Sequence record: OM630585.1
Reading direction: 5' to 3' (one strand)
Length of the DNA: 64,000 bases
Origin: Escherichia phage vB_EcoM_LNA6
The notes under the pieces were generated by a model. The model did not search any database. It worked only from the letters and a program-made list of their open reading frames with translations, and was not told the DNA's origin. Below, one piece after another: positions 11,259 to 27,004 of the stretch. Position numbers and translations under genes: made by a program. The stretch's first letter is position 1. Every line of letters begins with the position of its first letter.

Positions 11259-19256
<7,998 letters not shown>

Positions 19257-19258
19257 TA

Positions 19259-20407
19259 ATGGCAGTAGGTGAAATTCAAATCAGTGCCTTGCCTCAAGCA
19301 GCCTTACCAATTGACCTTAGTGATATCTTCCATCTTAAACAGGGTATCGAGGATAAGAGATGTACTCTTGAGCAATTACTTGCTCCACACTCAAGCCTAA
19401 GAAATAACCCACATGGTGTTACTAAGACACAAGTTGGTCTAGATAACGTTATTAATGCTCTCCAGTTAGTTGCTGAAAATAACTTATCAGACATTGTTAA
19501 TGTAGCTGAGGCAAGAGCAAATCTACAGATTATGTCTTCAGAAGAGGTTAATAATCTTATTCAACAACATATTGATGATAAGAGCAACCCACACAATACC
19601 ACTAAGGCACAGGTTGGGTTAAGTAATGTTCAGAACTGGGTGACATCTAACCTTTATAACGAGGATGCAGATAAGTATGCTACAGCAAGAGCAGTAAATA
19701 ACTTGTACAAGGCTGTTCAGGCTTCTTATCCAGTAGGTACTATCCATCTCTCTATGAATCCTGCAAACCCTTCTACATATTTAATTTGTGGAGGTACTTG
19801 GGAGTTAGTTTCAAAAGGAAGAGCACTTGTAGGTTATGATAGTGCTTCTAGGCCAGTTGGCTCAACGTTTGGTTCGCAGACTACTGCACTGACAGTTAAC
19901 AACATTCCTGCACATACTCACTCAGTATACGTCACTGGTGGTGGTCACACACACGGTGCAACGGCCTCTATCAGTGCTTTTGACTACGGTACTAAAGGGA
20001 CTACAACGTTTGACTATGGAACAAAGACTGTATCTACTTATGACTATGGTAACAGAACAACCAGTGCTGCTGGTTTAACACAAACAACATTCATTAATCG
20101 TGGTTATGCTGATGGTGGTTGGAGAGGTTTATCAGTTGAGGGGGCAAGCTATGACCCAAGAGCTACGCTGACAACAGCTAACAACCACACTCACTCTGTA
20201 GCAATTGGTGCGCATAATCACACAGTTGGTATTGGTGCTCACAGTCATTCTGTTGCAATTGGCTCCCACAACCACTCAGCAACAGTAACAGTAACCGGAG
20301 CAGGTGAGCATTCGCACTCTGGCACAACTGGCACAACTGGTTCTGGTCAAGCATTTAGCGTTGAACAGCCATCCTTCGTATTGTATGTATGGCAGAGAAC
20401 AGCTTAA
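19259..20407 (+). CDS. tail fibre protein with C-terminal HxH repeat domain
   Basis: 382 aa; multiple HTHS/HNHT/HSHS motifs and FDYGTK repeats; C-terminus GSGQAFSV..WQRTA paralogous to the next fibre gene. Confidence 0.7.
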   Translation: MAVGEIQISALPQAALPIDLSDIFHLKQGIEDKRCTLEQLLAPHSSLRNNPHGVTKTQVGLDNVINALQLVAENNLSDIVNVAEARANLQIMSSEEVNNLIQQHIDDKSNPHNTTKAQVGLSNVQNWVTSNLYNEDADKYATARAVNNLYKAVQASYPVGTIHLSMNPANPSTYLICGGTWELVSKGRALVGYDSASRPVGSTFGSQTTALTVNNIPAHTHSVYVTGGGHTHGATASISAFDYGTKGTTTFDYGTKTVSTYDYGNRTTSAAGLTQTTFINRGYADGGWRGLSVEGASYDPRATLTTANNHTHSVAIGAHNHTVGIGAHSHSVAIGSHNHSATVTVTGAGEHSHSGTTGTTGSGQAFSVEQPSFVLYVWQRTA

Positions 20408-20416
20408 TTTCTTTAC

Positions 20417-20437
20417 AGGGGCTTTATAGCCCCTTTT
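20417..20437 (+). terminator. rho-independent terminator between the two fibre genes
   Basis: GGGGCT-TTAT-AGCCCC hairpin followed by TTTT. Confidence 0.55.
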
Positions 20438-20453
20438 AAGAGGAAAATTTATA

Positions 20454-22793
20454 ATGGCAGATTACAAGTTGAGTGAATTAAACTCAATTGATACAATTCG
20501 TTCAGACGACCTTCTTCATGTCAGGGTTAAAAAGAGACCTGAAATGCTGGGTGATGAAGACCGTCGAATGACCTATCAAGACTTCTTAGCATCTTTTAAA
20601 CTAGAAAGATTTGTCCAGATTGCTGGTAGCACTATGACGGGTGACTTAGGAATTGTCAAGTTACTTTATGGTGGTAAGGCAGTATTTGACCCTACAGGCT
20701 CTTCTGAGATTACTATGGGGGATGTTTTAAAGTCTTTTAAAATCAACGCAAATGGCCTTAAACTAACTATTGCAGATGCTTCAAGGTCAGCAACTGTTTA
20801 CCATACTTTGAATAAGCCAAGCCCTAATGAACTTGGGATGAGAACTAATGAAGAGAATGATGCAAGGTATGCAAGGTTGGCTAACTCAAACACGTTTAAC
20901 GTCAAGCAGACTATTACAGCAAATGGAGAGATTCTAACACTAAGAAACCCTGCAAGTGCTAGTGAGGCATACACTGCTGTTGTAGCTAGGGATGCTAGTA
21001 ATGAAAAAGTTTGGGCTATCGGGAACCTAATTAAAGGCAGCCGTGATGTTCAAATTGAGAGTGAACAAGGTTCAACCATTACTCTAGGCACAAGTGTTGC
21101 TATTAATAAAACCCTTGCTATTACTGGTCAAGTTCAACCCTCTGACTTCTCTAACTTAGATGCTAGATATTTTACTCAGACAGCAGCTAATCAGAGATTT
21201 GCACAGTTAACTGGTAATAATACCTTTAGTGGTGCAAATGTGTTTAATGGCTTTAACACAATTAAACGTGATGGTGAAGTGTTAAGGTTGCAAAATTCAT
21301 CAGTTAGCCAGCCATTGTACATCAAGGCTATTGACTCTTCTGGTGCTAACAGGTGGTATGTTGGATGCGCCAACGGCGGTGATGATGTATCACTAGAGAA
21401 TTACAAAACTGGTGGTAAACTCACTATTGGTTCAAATGCCGCTATCAATACAACACTAAAAATCACTGGTCAAGTTCAACCTTCAGATTGGACTAACATT
21501 GACTCTAGATACATTCCAGCAGCAACATTAAGTACAATTGCAAGAACTAATGCAAGTAACACGTTCACTGCAAAGCAGGTTATTAACACTGATGGTGAAG
21601 CTCTTACGTTACAAGGAAAGACAACCGCAGCACTTTACATTAGAGGTAAGGACTATGATGGAACGAATAGGTGGTATGTTGGTAATAACAGTGAGAGTGA
21701 CACTCTTAATGTATATAACTATAAAACTGGTAAAACCCTAAGCATTGGTTCCGAAGTAGCAATTAATGCAACCTTAGTAATTGGTGGTCAAGTACAACCT
21801 AGCAACTTCACAAACTTTGATGCAAGGTATTACGGTAAAGCCGAAGCCGATTCAAAGTATTTCTGGTCAGCATTCAGAGCTTCGAAGACCGAGGCTGCTG
21901 GTGGTGTGGCTTGGGACCAACCCTCAGGAATCTATCTTGAGACAAAATCTAGCGGGCAAAACCGTTTAGTCTTGCACATGGCCTCTAATGCGAAAGCCCT
22001 AACACCATCTGCACAATTAAGATTTGAATCGAAAAATGGTGGGATGTGGTACAGGTCAGCCAGAGACACACTTGGCTTTGAGGTTGAATGGTCTAAGGTT
22101 TACACTGAAGCTCAGAAACCTACCCCTTCAGAGATTGGTGCATACACTAAAGCTGAAACTGACCAGAAGATTGCGCAGGCAGTAAGTGACTCTACAGACC
22201 TGAATAAAATCTATCCAGTAGGTATTGTGACGTGGTTTAACAGTAATGTTAACCCTAATACAGCACTGCCTGGCCTAACTTGGACGTATCTGAAGAATGG
22301 TGTTGGTAGGACTATTAGAATTGCAGCAGCAAATGGTTCAGATGTTGCTACAACTGGTGGTTCAGATTCTGTAACGTTAGCTGTTGGTAACTTACCTTCG
22401 CACACGCACAGTTTTTCTGCTACCACTTCATCTTTTGACTACGGAACAAAAAGCACTAACACGACTGGTGCTCACGCTCACTCTGTAAGTGGCTCTACTT
22501 CATCTGCTGGTAACCACAACCATTCCATTTCGTGGATTGGTCAGAACTCTACACACTACTCTGGTGGTGGTGGTGGTAGTATTGGTGTAGGACCGGGTTA
22601 CACCGATGCTAACGGTGCTCACACCCACTCTGTAAGTGGTACTGCCGCTTCTGCTGGTAACCATGCTCACAGTGTAGGTATCGGTGCTCACACTCATACA
22701 GTTAGTGGTAACACTGGTGGTACAGGTTCTGGTTCAGCATTTAGTGTTACTAACCAGTTCTACAAGTTAATGGCTTGGGTAAGAACTGCTTAA
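20454..22793 (+). CDS. tail fibre protein (long) with internal tandem repeats and C-terminal HxH domain
   Basis: 779 aa; three to four tandem ~105-115 aa repeats containing ITGQVQPSD; C-terminal HTHS/HAHS/HNHS motifs and conserved ending GSGSAFSV..WVRTA. Confidence 0.7.
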   Translation: MADYKLSELNSIDTIRSDDLLHVRVKKRPEMLGDEDRRMTYQDFLASFKLERFVQIAGSTMTGDLGIVKLLYGGKAVFDPTGSSEITMGDVLKSFKINANGLKLTIADASRSATVYHTLNKPSPNELGMRTNEENDARYARLANSNTFNVKQTITANGEILTLRNPASASEAYTAVVARDASNEKVWAIGNLIKGSRDVQIESEQGSTITLGTSVAINKTLAITGQVQPSDFSNLDARYFTQTAANQRFAQLTGNNTFSGANVFNGFNTIKRDGEVLRLQNSSVSQPLYIKAIDSSGANRWYVGCANGGDDVSLENYKTGGKLTIGSNAAINTTLKITGQVQPSDWTNIDSRYIPAATLSTIARTNASNTFTAKQVINTDGEALTLQGKTTAALYIRGKDYDGTNRWYVGNNSESDTLNVYNYKTGKTLSIGSEVAINATLVIGGQVQPSNFTNFDARYYGKAEADSKYFWSAFRASKTEAAGGVAWDQPSGIYLETKSSGQNRLVLHMASNAKALTPSAQLRFESKNGGMWYRSARDTLGFEVEWSKVYTEAQKPTPSEIGAYTKAETDQKIAQAVSDSTDLNKIYPVGIVTWFNSNVNPNTALPGLTWTYLKNGVGRTIRIAAANGSDVATTGGSDSVTLAVGNLPSHTHSFSATTSSFDYGTKSTNTTGAHAHSVSGSTSSAGNHNHSISWIGQNSTHYSGGGGGSIGVGPGYTDANGAHTHSVSGTAASAGNHAHSVGIGAHTHTVSGNTGGTGSGSAFSVTNQFYKLMAWVRTA
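20860..21860 (+). repeat. in-frame tandem coding repeats (~320-345 nt units) within long tail fibre gene
   Basis: Repeated DNA/protein blocks: ACTGGTCAAGTTCAACC at about 21123 and 21466, variant at 21784; protein motif (I/L)(T/G)GQVQPS(D/N). Confidence 0.6.
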
Positions 22794-22800
22794 TCCCTTG

Positions 22801-22829
22801 TTGACTGATTGTTAAGATGGTGTTAATAT
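22801..22829 (+). promoter_or_regulatory. sigma70-like promoter (TTGACT-N17-TAATAT)
   Basis: -35 TTGACT 22801-22806, 17 nt spacer, -10 TAATAT 22824-22829; 9 bp inverted repeat AAGATGGTG/CACCATCTT (22814-22822 and 22846-22854) brackets the -10 and start region. Confidence 0.5.
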
Positions 22830-22872
22830 TCTTTATGGGTATTCTCACCATCTTGGCTGATGAGGTGATTAA

Positions 22873-23067
22873 ATGCCTACAATCCTAGCAATTCTTCTAA
22901 AAAATCTAGGTAGCTTCTTCTGGAAACTCATTTTATCCCTTCTAAGTGAATACATGATTGAGAAAGTGTTCTTTAAGCTTGCAAGATACCTTGCGAGTAA
23001 AACAGACACACCTATTGATGATGAGTTCGTAGATAACTTAGAAAAAGCTTTTAAGGGGGAGAAATAA
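22873..23067 (+). CDS. small hydrophobic protein (hypothetical)
   Basis: 64 aa ORF with hydrophobic N-terminal segment; downstream of promoter-like element. Confidence 0.4.
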   Translation: MPTILAILLKNLGSFFWKLILSLLSEYMIEKVFFKLARYLASKTDTPIDDEFVDNLEKAFKGEK

Positions 23068-23433
23068 ATGAAGTGGCTAGAGGAAGCTTTTAAAAATAAT
23101 ATTGGTGCAATTGTAGTTGGTATTTTTAGTGCTATTGGGATGTATACCACGATGCAAGTCTCAAGTGGTAAGCAAGAAGTATCTGTCACAACAAAGTTAC
23201 AGCAGCTAGATAATTATTCCAAAAGTAACTATTCAGCTATTCGTGATTTACAGTCTGACATGAGACTGATTCAGCTAGGGATGGAGAACCAGAAAGTTCA
23301 GTTAGAGAATGTTAAGGGTGAAAACGCAAAACTTACTAAAACCCTTGATAAATTCTCTGACAGTGTGAATAATCTGGCTCAATCGGTATCAGCCCTCCAA
23401 GCTATTACTGAGAAGAATACAAAAGAACACTGA
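23068..23433 (+). CDS. membrane-anchored coiled-coil protein (hypothetical)
   Basis: 121 aa; N-terminal hydrophobic helix then coiled-coil-like sequence; start overlaps upstream stop. Confidence 0.4.
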   Translation: MKWLEEAFKNNIGAIVVGIFSAIGMYTTMQVSSGKQEVSVTTKLQQLDNYSKSNYSAIRDLQSDMRLIQLGMENQKVQLENVKGENAKLTKTLDKFSDSVNNLAQSVSALQAITEKNTKEH

Positions 23434-23445
23434 AAATAAAATTTT

Positions 23446-23478
23446 AAGGCTCCTTTTTACGGGAGCCTTTTTTGTTTT
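23446..23478. terminator. bidirectional intrinsic terminator between convergent genes
   Basis: AAGGCTCC-TTTTTAC-GGGAGCCTT hairpin flanked by T-runs on both strands; lies between + gene ending 23433 and - gene ending 23477. Confidence 0.6.
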
Positions 23479-24376
23479 ATTTACCTACTGATAAAGGTGC
23501 TTCAATCTTTCCTGCATGTTGGTAGTTACTAATTCCACCAATAAAGTCACTTGCAGTAAGATGTTTCAGGTCACTTAAAGTATTAAGTTGTAGACCAATC
23601 TCAAAAGTTGGTGCATGGAACTCTTCATTGTTCATCAGTTCATAAACCTGCTTCATATGATTCTGATAAATCTGAGTATCTCCAAAGACACCTATCAAGT
23701 ATCGTGGAGTATACCCAGTCATCTTGCAAAGAACTTCCAGAATAAAGCCATAGGATGCAATGTTAAACGGAAGTCCTAAAAAGGTGTCTACAGAACGTTG
23801 ATACCATTGTAAGTCAACTTCACCCTCGTTAGTGATATAAATCTGAAACAGAACATGACAAGGTGCTAAAGCCATCGAGTTGGCTGCAATATCTGCTGCA
23901 TTCCAAGCATTAACAAGCATGTAACGGTCTGTGATATCACCTTTCATCTTCGTTACTAAGGTCTCTAACTGGTCTACAACACAACCGTTATGACCTTCAA
24001 AGTTTCTCCACTGAACCCCGTAGATTCTACCACCTGCATCTTCTAACCAGTCTTGTTCAGAAGAATAGTTAGAGCTTAACCAACGTTTAAAATCATCTGA
24101 CCAGATAGTCCAGCGTTCCCCATCATTTTCACCCCAAGTACGGTAGCGGAGTTCACCAAGTTTATTCTCACCATTCAGGAACCATAAAGCCTCCCCAATG
24201 ACTTGCCGCGTAAACACCTGTTTAGATGTTAAGAGTGGGAAACCAGTTCTCATATCAAAACGAAATTGTGGTGGAGCAAATGCAGAGATAACATCTCCAG
24301 TTCGTGTAGTACGCAGTTCACCAACTGATAAAACATGGTTCAGGATATTTTTGTAGCTTGTATCTGCTTGTGACAT
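23477..24376 (-). CDS. thyA: thymidylate synthase family protein (uracil-specific type)
   Basis: 299 aa; ALAPCHVLFQ and YQRSVDTFLGLPFNIASY match the ThyA catalytic Cys and core motifs; GDTQIYQNH retains the Asn of dUMP-specific enzymes. Confidence 0.8.
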   Translation of the reverse strand: MSQADTSYKNILNHVLSVGELRTTRTGDVISAFAPPQFRFDMRTGFPLLTSKQVFTRQVIGEALWFLNGENKLGELRYRTWGENDGERWTIWSDDFKRWLSSNYSSEQDWLEDAGGRIYGVQWRNFEGHNGCVVDQLETLVTKMKGDITDRYMLVNAWNAADIAANSMALAPCHVLFQIYITNEGEVDLQWYQRSVDTFLGLPFNIASYGFILEVLCKMTGYTPRYLIGVFGDTQIYQNHMKQVYELMNNEEFHAPTFEIGLQLNTLSDLKHLTASDFIGGISNYQHAGKIEAPLSVGK

Positions 24377-24377
24377 A

Positions 24378-24923
24378 TTAAAAGTGCCCTTTTACTTGTG
24401 GAACATAGATTTCAAAAGTTGCTTTACCATCCTCTGATGGTTTTGACTGTACCTTTGTAAACACACGGTTATCATACAGCTTCTCAAAGAAGTTTTCAAA
24501 AGGTAAATGCACAGTGGCCTCTTCAGTAACTTTATGGAAAACAGTATGGAACACCACACTAGCATACGGTAAAGCATTGACAAGGATACCTGCACCACCA
24601 ATTACAAAGACATCTTCATCAATAGAGCTATCAAGATACTTCAAAAATGCTCCAAATGACTCTTTACTGGCTTTAGCATACATTACATCATCTTTGCCAA
24701 AGTCTATGCCTAAGTATGGTACAGAATTTGTTAAGATGAGGTTTGCACGTTCTGGTAAAGGTTTACTACCCAGAGTCTTAAAAGTCTTATTACCCATGAC
24801 TACTAAGTTATTTTTAGTGAGTCTCTTAAACTCTTGCATGTCCTGTTTATGTCGAGGCCACGGCATACCAGTCGGTGTACCAAATTCACCGTTTTCACCA
24901 CTTGCAAATATTAGTTTAATCAT
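24378..24923 (-). CDS. frd: dihydrofolate reductase
   Basis: 181 aa; N-terminal MIKLIFA..G..G..PW and VIGGAGILVNALPYA resemble DHFR; adjacent to thymidylate synthase. Confidence 0.7.
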   Translation of the reverse strand: MIKLIFASGENGEFGTPTGMPWPRHKQDMQEFKRLTKNNLVVMGNKTFKTLGSKPLPERANLILTNSVPYLGIDFGKDDVMYAKASKESFGAFLKYLDSSIDEDVFVIGGAGILVNALPYASVVFHTVFHKVTEEATVHLPFENFFEKLYDNRVFTKVQSKPSEDGKATFEIYVPQVKGHF

Positions 24924-25180
24924 TTTGTAAACCCTTTCTTAATGAACCAGTTGATGACACTCTTCACAAATTTACTACGATGGTAGATAAAATGTGGAGA
25001 GGGTTGGTATGAACCATAAGCCCAGAAAGCGATAATTTCATTACACCCTGTGCATCGGGTACTTTCTTCAGCAATATGACCGTTGACTATTTCGCTTACC
25101 TCACCTTGTAAGTCTGTACACCCACAATGTGGACATCGGATAGGTGTTCCATCAGACTCATAGCAGTGTTCAATTTTCAT
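24920..25180 (-). CDS. small zinc-ribbon protein (hypothetical)
   Basis: 86 aa with CPHC ... CTGC cysteine pairs. Confidence 0.4.
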   Translation of the reverse strand: MKIEHCYESDGTPIRCPHCGCTDLQGEVSEIVNGHIAEESTRCTGCNEIIAFWAYGSYQPSPHFIYHRSKFVKSVINWFIKKGFTK

Positions 25181-25696
25181 TTATTTAACCTCAAAAACTG
25201 GCTCAAGAACCAATATAAAGTCTACACAGTCATCTTCTTCATCCAGAATACCATCAAAGTTCTTAGGAACGAAGTCGAAGAGGTTCATAACAAAGCAGTC
25301 AGAAGTGACCTTGATAGTTCCTCCCATGTTCTCTACAGTTAGCACTGTACGACTTTCTTTTACCTCCCTCAGAAGATTACCCACAAAGTCGTCTAAGAAG
25401 TACTTCATCAGTGACTTGAAACCTTTAGGGTAATCTGTACCAGAGTATGTTTCAATCTGAGGAACAAGCTTAACATTTATACTAGTCTTTGTTAAGAACG
25501 TTTTAGAGAACATACTATCAGGTAACTTACAAACAGTCTTTCCAGTACCTTCATGCTCAATCTCAACAAAACCAGCTTCGTCGCCACATGTAACTATTTT
25601 AAAAGATGCTTCATTCTCATACTGTGAAGCCATAAACTTTTTAAGCATCTCTTTAAGGAAGTCTGCATGAGCATCTTGTAAGAAGATATCAATCAT
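25181..25696 (-). CDS. hypothetical protein
   Basis: 171 aa ORF, no recognisable motif. Confidence 0.4.
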   Translation of the reverse strand: MIDIFLQDAHADFLKEMLKKFMASQYENEASFKIVTCGDEAGFVEIEHEGTGKTVCKLPDSMFSKTFLTKTSINVKLVPQIETYSGTDYPKGFKSLMKYFLDDFVGNLLREVKESRTVLTVENMGGTIKVTSDCFVMNLFDFVPKNFDGILDEEDDCVDFILVLEPVFEVK

Positions 25697-25709
25697 AGTT
25701 AATCACCTA

Positions 25710-26069
25710 TTATGGGAACAAACACTTAATGTCATCGTTTTTGAAAACAAAACTTGTGTAATTATGACCATCAACATCCAGCCAAACAGCCTGAACATCT
25801 ACACCATCAAGATTTTGGTAAAGCTCTTTGATGAAGTGGTCTTTTACAATCTGACTGCTAGTTGTTTCCAACTTAATGTTCGAGATTGCTGAACCTACAG
25901 CCATATAGCCCATGACACGTTTCTTCTCAGTATGCTTAATCTTACCATCTTTGTAAGCCATAATGAGATTGGAAAGAATCTTTACACCGTAATACTTTTC
26001 AAGGTGAGTAGGTACACCATAAAAGCCTAATGCGAAGTTTTCAGAGTGGATAATGTTTTCACGTTTCAT
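25710..26069 (-). CDS. hypothetical protein
   Basis: 119 aa ORF. Confidence 0.4.
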   Translation of the reverse strand: MKRENIIHSENFALGFYGVPTHLEKYYGVKILSNLIMAYKDGKIKHTEKKRVMGYMAVGSAISNIKLETTSSQIVKDHFIKELYQNLDGVDVQAVWLDVDGHNYTSFVFKNDDIKCLFP

Positions 26070-26070
26070 A

Positions 26071-26370
26071 CTAGTCTGCCAACCTTAAATTGAAATTAAC
26101 ACCAAATTTTTCACATACTTCCAACATATACTCAAGGGAAACATTACCAGTGAGGTGGATTATGTTGGATACACGAGCCTGAGAGATACCACAAATTTTA
26201 GCAACTTGCTCTTGAGAAAGACCTCTTGATTTAATCTCTCTCTTAAAACGATGTGCAACGAAGTCTCTCATTTCATCTACATCCATTGGACAAATATAAC
26301 TCTCCATTTCAGCCTCTCTATCAGCCTCCCAATCATCTTGTGGGGCATAAGGGTCAAAAACCTCATTCAT
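26071..26370 (-). CDS. XRE-type helix-turn-helix DNA-binding protein
   Basis: C-terminal GLSQEQVAKICGISQARVSNIIH matches HTH_XRE pattern; start trimmed to ATG 26370 (track start at 26400 is TTG). Confidence 0.5.
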   Translation of the reverse strand: MNEVFDPYAPQDDWEADREAEMESYICPMDVDEMRDFVAHRFKREIKSRGLSQEQVAKICGISQARVSNIIHLTGNVSLEYMLEVCEKFGVNFNLRLAD

Positions 26371-26575
26371 CTTTCTTCTTCCGTTTGAGTGAAGTGTCAA
26401 TCAATGAATCTATGTTTGTAGCCCTAACCTTTTCACGTTCATCATTAAGATAATCGTCAAGAGCCTTTTCAATCTGTGAATCATCTTGACAGATGACTGT
26501 AAAGACTGTAAAGCCGTCTGTATCGTCAATTATCTTACCATAACCGCTTCTGGGATGTAACTTTTTAAGAGCCAT
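26363..26575 (-). CDS. hypothetical protein
   Basis: 70 aa ORF. Confidence 0.35.
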   Translation of the reverse strand: MALKKLHPRSGYGKIIDDTDGFTVFTVICQDDSQIEKALDDYLNDEREKVRATNIDSLIDTSLKRKKKDE

Positions 26576-26576
26576 A

Positions 26577-26960
26577 TTAGATACCTGTGCAGCTTCTGTT
26601 TTCTAAGAAATACTCAACACCATACATAGCTTTTTGCATCAAATCTTCTTTAAACTGGATACGATGGTTGAGCATAGCCTGTACATCAATATCATCATGG
26701 TGCTTCTCTTTAATATTTGCAGATTGCAGGAAATACTCTGCAAGAACGCGATACTGGTAGTCAGTTACCTTATCAGTCATCTCTGTCAAAGACTCTTCAG
26801 AGATTGGTTTAAGTAGCTCACCATTAGCTAGAGCAACACCTTTTACAATCTGGCAAGTATCCTCTGGAACACCTGATAAGTCCACATTTGGAAGTTCTGT
26901 TGCATTGACTGGTAAATTCATTGCCATAACCATTGCAGCAGCTAATAAAATCTTTTTCAT
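26577..26960 (-). CDS. secreted protein with N-terminal signal peptide (hypothetical)
   Basis: 127 aa; MKKILLAAAMVMAMNLPVNA signal-peptide-like N-terminus. Confidence 0.5.
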   Translation of the reverse strand: MKKILLAAAMVMAMNLPVNATELPNVDLSGVPEDTCQIVKGVALANGELLKPISEESLTEMTDKVTDYQYRVLAEYFLQSANIKEKHHDDIDVQAMLNHRIQFKEDLMQKAMYGVEYFLENRSCTGI

Positions 26961-27004
26961 AATGACCTCAAAGTTATATTAAATTTTGTATTACATTGAG
27001 TATA

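Follow-up and report, generated by a model that had tools for sequence, protein, structure and literature searches.

What kind of tail fibres are encoded by two adjacent genes of Escherichia phage vB_EcoM_LNA6, and how does their locus evolve? The genes lie at positions 19259–22793 of the window, the whole 64,000-nt stretch of sequence record OM630585.1 that was analysed. An earlier note on this DNA, made from the letters alone, had recognized two paralogous tail fibre genes with histidine-rich ends and large internal repeats, and had proposed that such repeats and tips are hotspots for recombinational host-range switching. The two genes fill the region with exact open reading frames (ORFs), and their identification as tail fibre genes stands on profile matches, synteny and orthologues. 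The first, encoding the short tail fibre (STF; 19259–20407, 382 aa), matches the tail fibre family phrog_2097 (E = 1e-127) and is 98% identical to gp26 of phage Bas63. The second, encoding the long tail fibre (LTF; 20454–22793, 779 aa), matches the tail fibre family phrog_4277 over its full length (1273 bits) and is 71% identical to Bas63 gp27. Both are on the + strand, as are all fibre features given below, with 46 nt between them and with both starts intact. We consider, with a probability of roughly 0.92, that the two ORFs encode the side fibres of a Felixounavirus, with tips of the T4 gp37 type, a modular LTF and a locus that evolves by recombination.

The closest relative of 19259–22793 in the database is Escherichia phage allfine (MN850633), with 98.7% DNA identity, and almost all of the 235 phage records that match this region belong to Felixounavirus or to other Ounavirinae. 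Judging from these matches, the source phage is itself a Felixounavirus (Ounavirinae), a Felix O1-like myovirus of E. coli. The fibre genes are annotated in more than 200 deposited Felixounavirus genomes, and the architecture of such fibres, including the needle with its HxH (His-X-His) motifs and the repeated rod, is already known, having been published with cryo-electron microscopy (cryo-EM) in 2025 for Bas63 (PMC12609058) and Sf14 (PMC11821841). What is new here is an explicit map of the modules together with the transition points of recombination, which we regard as a modest addition.

Fibre tips of the gp37 type

Both fibres end in dense HxH motifs. There are seven in the STF (HTHS219, HTHG230, HTHS310, HNHT319, HSHS328, HNHS337 and HSHS351) and six in the LTF (HTHS650, HAHS674, HNHS688, HTHS723, HAHS737 and HTHT746), numbers that were never reached in 20,000 shuffles of each protein (mean 1.0 and maximum 6 for the STF; mean 0.3 and maximum 4 for the LTF). 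The fibres also share a C-terminal ending: the last segment of the STF (GSGQAFSVEQPSFVLYVWQRTA, 20339–20404) and that of the LTF (GSGSAFSVTNQFYKLMAWVRTA) are identical at 12 of 22 positions, and both finish with RTA. In a BLASTP comparison of the two proteins only the C-terminal ~230 aa align (30% identity, E = 2e-13). Besides this region, a short N-terminal motif is common to both, EDKRCT in the STF and EDRRMT in the LTF; motifs of this type have been assigned to the baseplate-binding region in Sf14 (PMC11821841). The paralogy claimed in the earlier note holds for the tip module and for this short motif, but not elsewhere, the STF being without a rod.

The tips are homologous to the tip of T4 gp37. 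In phmmer searches against the PDB, 2XGF, a crystal structure of this receptor-binding tip, was matched by the LTF with an E-value of 1.6e-17, by the STF with 3.2e-14 and by a 15-phage profile with 1.4e-20. In a three-way alignment with T4 gp37 residues 801–1026 (~226 aa), the LTF is 43% and the STF 34% identical to the T4 protein. The HxH motifs of the LTF align with iron-site motifs 1–6 of the seven in T4, and those of the STF align with five of the seven (motifs 1 and 4–7), the two others being extra. In T4 gp37, collar domain D10 comprises residues 811–881 and 1010–1026, and needle domain D11 (882–1009) is divided into a stem and a tip subdomain (932–959), with seven iron atoms along the needle; these ions, which lie buried in the axis, are required for folding (PMC6957217). 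H688/H690 of the LTF align with T4 H929/H931, an iron site that is essential, alanine substitution abolishing plaque formation (PMC6957217). Four of the six HxH motifs of the LTF are invariant in 15 phages, H737/H739 and H746/H748 among them. The number of HxH units differs between alleles, with seven or nine in STFs and six or four in LTFs.

The layout of the sequence alignment is that of T4: an outward strand, a head, a return strand and a C-terminal segment back to the collar. In the LTF, the predicted collar (22191–22397) aligns with the gp37 collar in 2XGF, and the outward needle strand (22398–22523; HxH at aa 650, 674 and 688) corresponds residue for residue to that of T4, including H929/H931. 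The head, or tip subdomain (22524–22613; aa 691–720), aligns with T4 residues 932–959 and is the putative receptor contact; it is followed by the return strand (HxH at aa 723, 737 and 746), which together with the C-terminal segment spans 22614–22790. In the STF, a collar of the gp10/gp12/gp37 fold leads into the outward strand with HxH at aa 219 and 230 (19718–20038); this region is matched by Pfam Gp10_C over aa 154–260 (64.9 bits against a cut-off of 27) and by PDB structures of T4 gp10 and gp37. The STF needle (19976–20173), as read from the sequence, begins with three FDYGTK-type units of 11 aa (19976–20074), followed by a variable head region (aa ~262–305); over aa 261–320 the Salmonella-type STFs are only 0–35% identical to that of the window. 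The return strand (20186–20317) contains five HxH 'His boxes' (aa 310–353) aligned to T4 motifs 4–7, and Tandem Repeats Finder (TRF) detected a 27-nt period in it, with 3.4 copies at 20186–20277 that correspond to a 9-aa His-box unit, GAHxHxVxI. The C-terminal segment of the STF aligns with the T4 gp37 C-terminus, ...NIAFNYIVRLA. Upstream, the STF shaft contains two copies of the motif NPHxxTKxQVGLxNV (19406–19630; aa 50–64 and 110–124, 60 aa apart), visible also as a DNA repeat (19406–19450 against 19586–19630, 71% identity). Essentially, the STF appears to consist of an anchor, a helix-turn shaft and a tip.

By extension from the orthologues and the literature, each fibre protein would form a homotrimer held at the baseplate through a short domain at its N-terminus, with the wedge 2A subunit as the attachment site of the STF and a gp25-type platform as that of the LTF. 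At the other end, each fibre would carry a gp37-type module, in which a collar is followed by a six-stranded β-needle; each chain would extend outwards to a small head and then turn back, the HxH motifs of the three chains coordinating an axial row of metal ions (Fe2+ in T4) needed for folding. The likeness to the metal-coordinating tips of T4-type fibres, suggested by the earlier note, is borne out by the homology to 2XGF and by the alignment of the HxH motifs to the iron sites; metal binding itself we infer from this homology and from published work on orthologues. The last ~20 residues would go back to the collar, which would account for the C-terminal ending shared by both fibres.

The HxH motifs can also be read differently. 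Fibres with HxH motifs in marine phages have reportedly given rise to the idea of a 'Ferrojan horse', and the His-rich segments might accordingly be bait for siderophore or iron-uptake receptors instead of structural sites; with seven potential iron sites per STF chain and six per LTF chain, iron would be at hand. However, the motifs correspond one by one to structural sites in T4, where the ions are buried on the axis of the needle and needed for folding (PMC6957217), and the relatives depend on the lipopolysaccharide (LPS) core and not on iron transporters, so that we consider iron bait very improbable.

Rod modules and cassette mosaicism of the long fibre

Between its conserved N-terminal region (20454–20858; aa 1–135), which includes the baseplate-binding domain by comparison with Bas63 (PMC12609058), and its tip, the LTF is built of repeats. 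For the three to four repeats of 105–115 aa counted in the earlier note, we find three units and a partial fourth: R1 (20859–21119; aa 136–222, 87 aa), a degenerate copy recovered with an E-value of ~1e-10; R2 (21120–21461; aa 223–336, 114 aa), which opens with the linker ITGQVQPSDFSNLDARYF; R3 (21462–21779; aa 337–442, 106 aa); and a 27-aa fourth unit consisting of the linker only (21780–21860; aa 443–469; E = 5e-8 against the R2/R3 profile). The self-comparison proposed in the earlier note thus gave significant internal copies: R2 and R3 are 46% identical (E = 3e-26 in segment BLASTP), and profile–profile comparison of R1, R2 and R3 with hhalign gave probabilities of 99.6–99.9%. Self-BLASTP of the whole LTF returned the identity match only, and the copies came out by segment BLASTP, hidden Markov models and hhalign. 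Furthermore, Pfam gp37_trimer (PF20744) matches the LTF in three stretches (E = 6e-55, 183.7 bits against a cut-off of 21.7), the best of which is aa 274–356. The modules are connected by conserved linkers, ITGQVQPSDxxNxDxRY. In the DNA, recognizable repetition is confined to the 89-nt unit boundaries, with 65–72% identity and spacings of 342 and 318 nt; TRF did not detect the 318–342-nt period in the LTF because the cores are too diverged. The R3 region (positions 380–450) also has a weak profile match of ~70 residues to the C-terminal structure of T7 gp17 (4A0T/4A0U, E ~5e-6); a resemblance to T7 gp17 was reported from models by the authors of the Sf14 study (PMC11821841).

The rod is followed by a domain of another kind (21861–22184; aa ~477–577), which resembles the distal fibre domain of Mu S, P2 H and P1 S'. 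It is matched by Pfam gp37_C (PF12604) at aa 481–581 (E = 7e-14, 52.2 bits against a cut-off of 22.5) and by the Mu S/S' structure 8JU3 (E = 1e-17 with the single sequence, 2e-21 with the profile), and tblastn found this domain in P1, P2 and Mu at 40–46% identity. The Mu-S-like segment resembles R2 and R3 in the linker only, the hhalign alignment of R2 spanning 48 residues. Both this domain and aa 55–135 were considered as additional rod copies, which would have brought the count to the five β-helix domains of the Bas63 paper, and rejected, hhalign probabilities being below 2% save for a shared linker or motif. We also observed a 22-residue motif, YxxxxKPxPxExGxxT, placed before the first rod unit (aa 113–134, 20790–20855) and again after the Mu-S-like domain (aa 547–568, 22092–22157; hhalign E = 5e-5), which may be a helix-and-turn junction. 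In phage momo, the LTF is 843 aa long, 64 aa longer than that of the window, and all of the extra length is found in the Mu-S-like region (inserts after 21928–22098); alleles of this domain therefore differ not only in sequence but also in size. Taken together, the LTF would consist, between anchor and tip, of three homologous rod modules of ~90–115 aa and a domain of the Mu S/P2 H type.

Nothing contradicts the proposed architecture, though four observations leave it incompletely supported. The LTF collar scores 26.8 bits with Gp10_C, just below the cut-off of 27. Single-chain AlphaFold2 modelling of the LTF tip (aa 577–779) was unusable, with a mean predicted local distance difference test (pLDDT) score of 37.9 and a predicted template modelling (pTM) score of 0.21; a monomer cannot form the interdigitated trimeric needle, and a single-chain model is thus unsuited to it. 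Three rod units are recognized by sequence, against five β-helix domains counted in the Bas63 paper. Finally, the ORFs adjoining the fibre genes, the only ones scanned for this, contained no match to a gp38, gp57A or Tfa-like chaperone.

Is the LTF locus a recombination hotspot, as the earlier note supposed? We compared the window with 16 relatives (17 phages), defining allele classes at a threshold of 80% identity, and found mosaicism module by module. In the relatives, mean identity to the LTF of the window is 84–95% at aa 1–150 and 571–660, 81–96% at aa 721–779 and 67–76% in the linker windows, whereas the rod cores (aa ~146–212, 263–330 and 373–438), the Mu-S-like domain (471–545) and the head (691–722) are only 10–40% identical in many phages; for the head, identity to Salmonella-type fibres is 10–30%. 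The three rod cores fall into 10, 9 and 10 classes, the Mu-S-like domain into 11 and the head into 7, and the combinations of these classes are non-congruent. The rod cores and the Mu-S-like domain, with mean pairwise identities of 0.37–0.40, are accordingly more diverse than the head (9–11 against 7 classes). The alleles of the window are rare among the 235 records: its R1 core occurs in three, its R2 core in one, namely allfine, its R3 core in seven and its Mu-S-like domain in six.

The transitions between similar and dissimilar tracts fall at conserved segments. Phage mio differs from the window at 3 of 261 nt in R1 and at 112 of 342 nt in R2, and its tract stops at 21150, within the R2 linker. 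Conversely, nataliec differs at 136 of 261 nt in R1 and at only one of 355 nt in 21780–22134, and its tract begins at 21780, the start of the partial fourth linker. Tracts of humlepung begin at 21479, within the R3 linker, and at 21757, ~20 nt before the partial fourth linker. In the tip, the tracts of heid, momo and skuden begin at ~22415–22418, ~10 nt past the first His box (nt 22401–22409). Over 22418–22793, heid and momo each differ from the window at one of 376 nt, heid differing in the rod at 503 of 1559 nt. With allfine the pattern is reversed: 3 of 2876 nt differ from the window up to 22134, against 46 of the 659 nt that follow (Fisher p = 8e-31). The LTF of the window is thus a recombinant relative to allfine, with an allfine-type rod and a heid/momo-type tip, and the LTF in general is a mosaic of cassettes assembled by recombination. 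Homologous recombination would act at the conserved segments, i.e. the linkers at repeat boundaries and the flanks of collar and needle including the first His box, and would reshuffle the head, the Mu-S-like domain and the diverged cores of the rod independently. According to the Bas63 paper, the tips are highly variable and so, 'unexpectedly', are the β-helix repeats, the number of which is constant (PMC12609058). The words recombination, horizontal and host range are all absent from its text, so that the variability is not analysed there as recombination.

Host recognition and alternative readings

In the proposed architecture, the head of each fibre would contact the receptor. Reports on relatives point to the LPS core as the probable receptor: Bas63 requires an intact LPS core, and VpaE1 is reported to require the outer core. 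Recombination at the fibre locus may then switch host range, an effect suggested by orthologues and by the literature. The distribution of alleles follows the hosts in part at best. Eleven of the phages are recorded as K-12 isolates, and these contain at least six classes of the R1 core, three of the R2 core and four of the R3 core; since several core classes occur in phages isolated on E. coli K-12, the exchange of rods does not follow the isolation host. By head class, the K-12 isolates are set apart from Salmonella-type fibres only in part: in mio, which was isolated on K-12, the head of the LTF is divergent and that of the STF resembles the Salmonella type. The ratio of nonsynonymous to synonymous substitution rates (dN/dS) is 0.02–0.06 in the LTF N-terminus, 0.13–0.15 in the tip and 0.3–0.5 in the rod cores, with dS saturated for the R2 alleles, and never exceeds 1. 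These values fit relaxed constraint and give no support for positive selection on the rod cores.

Could the shaft nevertheless be a second layer of specificity, the rod modules and the Mu-S-like domain for instance binding glycans laterally or evading a host or immune factor, with alleles kept by diversifying selection and shuffled as cassettes? The greater diversity of these segments compared with the head, the rarity of the alleles of the window and the higher dN/dS of the rod cores compared with N-terminus and tip would all be expected under such a scheme. Moreover, in Mu, P2 and P1 the domain of this type belongs to the distal portion of the fibre, which determines specificity. Mutations of the LTF at aa 497 and 534 were reported from a host-challenge study with a Salmonella Felixounavirus (PMC6669636); by sequence these would map to the Mu-S-like domain and not to the needle head. 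The variability of the rod was, in addition, unexpected to the authors of the Bas63 study (PMC12609058). On the other hand, a dN/dS of 0.3–0.5 is equally consistent with relaxed constraint, and the rod alleles of the eleven K-12 isolates do not follow the host. Mosaicism of fibre shafts is, besides, common in phages and needs no function. On balance, we consider a specificity function of the shaft unlikely, and the fuller proposal, that the shaft is an array of three ~110-aa modules and the Mu-S-like domain whose cores reassort through conserved linkers of ~30–50 aa and whose diversity is selected for host recognition or escape, is likewise doubtful. If shaft cassettes do affect host recognition, the prediction of host range from Felix O1-like fibres would change modestly. 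A further possibility is that STF and LTF are alternatives, as S and S' are in Mu or P1, with one expressed or mounted per virion and hence two host ranges. The Mu S-like domain of the LTF might hint at this, and the authors of the Sf14 study drew a likeness to the two fibre types of Mu, yet cryo-EM of both Bas63 and Sf14 shows particles that bear the two fibres together, and mass spectrometry detected both proteins in Sf14 (PMC11821841). The genes of the window themselves are intact and lie close together on the same strand. They are not flanked by inverted repeats of the type of the G or C segments; the two pairs found are weak (22 nt with 77% and 18 nt with 89% complementarity), and neither brackets a fibre gene. 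The ORF list for 15000–27000, in which not all ORFs were profile-searched, contains no invertase-like gene. An invertible segment like Mu G or P1 C was rejected in view of the lack of suitable inverted repeats and of published virions that bear both fibres, and alternative mounting of the two fibres is highly improbable. We thus retain the reading of two side fibres with gp37-type tips, both probably carried by the virion, with an LTF that varies by recombination of cassettes.

In phage engineering, the ITGQVQPSD linkers and the first His box would mark sites at which parts of the fibre can probably be exchanged with assembly intact. The LTF of the window, with its allfine-type rod and heid-type tip, is a natural example.

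Genomic context and closest known systems

The fibre genes are preceded by genes for a Baseplate_J protein (16625–18094) and a DUF2612-like wedge protein (18097–18954) and, directly 5' of the STF gene, by a 100-aa ORF on the + strand (18954–19256). The latter matches phrog_4141 over its full length and has the size and position of bas63_0025; it appears syntenic with Bas63 gp25, the 'LTF platform' that joins the long fibre to the baseplate wedge (PMC12609058). After the fibre genes come two small ORFs and, on the opposite strand, td/frd, the genes for thymidylate synthase and dihydrofolate reductase. This order, from the baseplate wedge genes to td/frd, is the same in Bas63 (JohannRWettstein), allfine, Felix O1 and all other relatives fetched. 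NCBIfam gave zero matches for both fibres and for the neighbouring ORFs.

The intergenic region between the fibre genes (20408–20453) contains a stem-loop, AGGGGCT-TTAT-AGCCCCT followed by TTT (20417–20434), with a 7-bp stem and an RNA folding energy of −16.8 kcal/mol (z = −2.0). Across nine Ounavirinae its stem is unchanged and its loop varies. Owing to its short T run, the hairpin was passed over by the terminator scan; it might attenuate transcription of the LTF or stabilize the mRNA. Promoter and terminator scans of 18800–23600 remained at background level except for a bidirectional terminator at 23446–23469. This strong terminator-like hairpin, AAGGCTCC...GGAGCCTT, has T runs on both strands and forms the meeting point of the late structural operon of the + strand and td/frd of the − strand; the sign of the GC skew flips at the same place.

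Directly downstream of the fibre gene, T4, lambda, Mu and P2 have genes for chaperones or adhesins of the fibre. The two ORFs 3' of the LTF gene, 22873–23067 (64 aa) and 23068–23433 (121 aa), matched only PHROGs of unknown function and no further family. The 121-aa protein has a transmembrane-like N-terminal segment and a coiled coil and is annotated as 'holin' in relatives. Sf14 gp55 ('holin or lysozyme'), listed after the LTF, was found by mass spectrometry of particles (PMC11821841); from its position and name we assume it to be the orthologue of the 121-aa protein. ARAGORN found zero tRNA genes within the window, and Felixounaviruses are reported to have 17–22 tRNAs (PMC7552041), so that the tRNA cluster must lie outside the window.

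The closest structurally characterized system is Bas63, in which cryo-EM resolved a 430-Å STF (gp26, seven HxH) and a 630-Å LTF (gp27, six HxH) on the same virion, with a structurally conserved N-terminal baseplate-binding domain in both fibres, gp37-like tips of collar, needle and head with conserved HxH motifs, and β-helix repeat domains (PMC12609058). Bas63 belongs to the same genus and has the same gene order, similar lengths (STF 382 aa; LTF 784 aa against 779 aa in the window) and the same HxH counts. Its LTF is near-identical to that of the window at aa 1–145 and 560–779, and only ~30–60% identical in the rod cores and the Mu-S-like domain; next to the head, it has HHxH (AGHHNH) where the window has AGNHNH. 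In the GenBank record of Bas63 (MZ501086), the 382-aa protein is labelled 'long tail fiber protein' and the 784-aa protein 'tail fiber protein', the opposite of the cryo-EM paper. The fibre genes of allfine, allfine_16 and allfine_15, are near-identical to those of the window up to 22134 and differ from them at 46 positions in the last 659 nt, which encode collar, needle and head. A fragment with 76% protein identity to the LTF is also contained in MG065668.1, a record attributed to 'Campylobacter phage A126' that is possibly contaminated or misassigned.

In another genus, Shigella phage Sf14 (Mooglevirus) has the same composite pair of fibres, gp52 and gp53 (391 and 792 aa), folded back along the sheath, with parts like T7 gp17, Mu, the C-terminus of T4 gp10 and gp37 and without a chaperone homologue (PMC11821841). 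The Mooglevirus LTFs compared here (ESh19 and SFPB) are ~52% identical to the LTF of the window and have four HxH motifs against six. Mu S/S', P2 H and P1 S' share the distal domain, but in the LTF it is internal, with a gp37-type tip after it, whereas it lies near the end in those fibres; among the neighbouring ORFs scanned, no chaperone gene of the U, G or Tfa type follows the LTF gene.

By sequence alignment, T4 gp37 shares with the predicted fibres of the window the collar, the outward and return strands with His boxes, a head of similar length and the C-terminal return segment. However, gp37 is the distal half-fibre of a fibre made of four proteins and needs gp57A and gp38, whereas here one protein would make up a whole fibre; the rod of the LTF is not gp37-like, and the T4 short fibre gp12 differs from the STF. 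The mosaicism, too, has a counterpart in T-even phages, for which Tetart et al. (J Mol Biol 1996, 1998) are said to have described recombination and duplication at 'His boxes' in gp37; a literature search for the term 'His box' gave no paper using it. There, as here, conserved GxHxH-coding motifs flank variable adhesin segments. In the present locus, identity changes sharply just past the first His box in three relatives, and the number of HxH units varies between alleles. Unlike the LTF, however, the T-even gp37 is without the rod linkers, where most of the exchanges in the present fibres occur.

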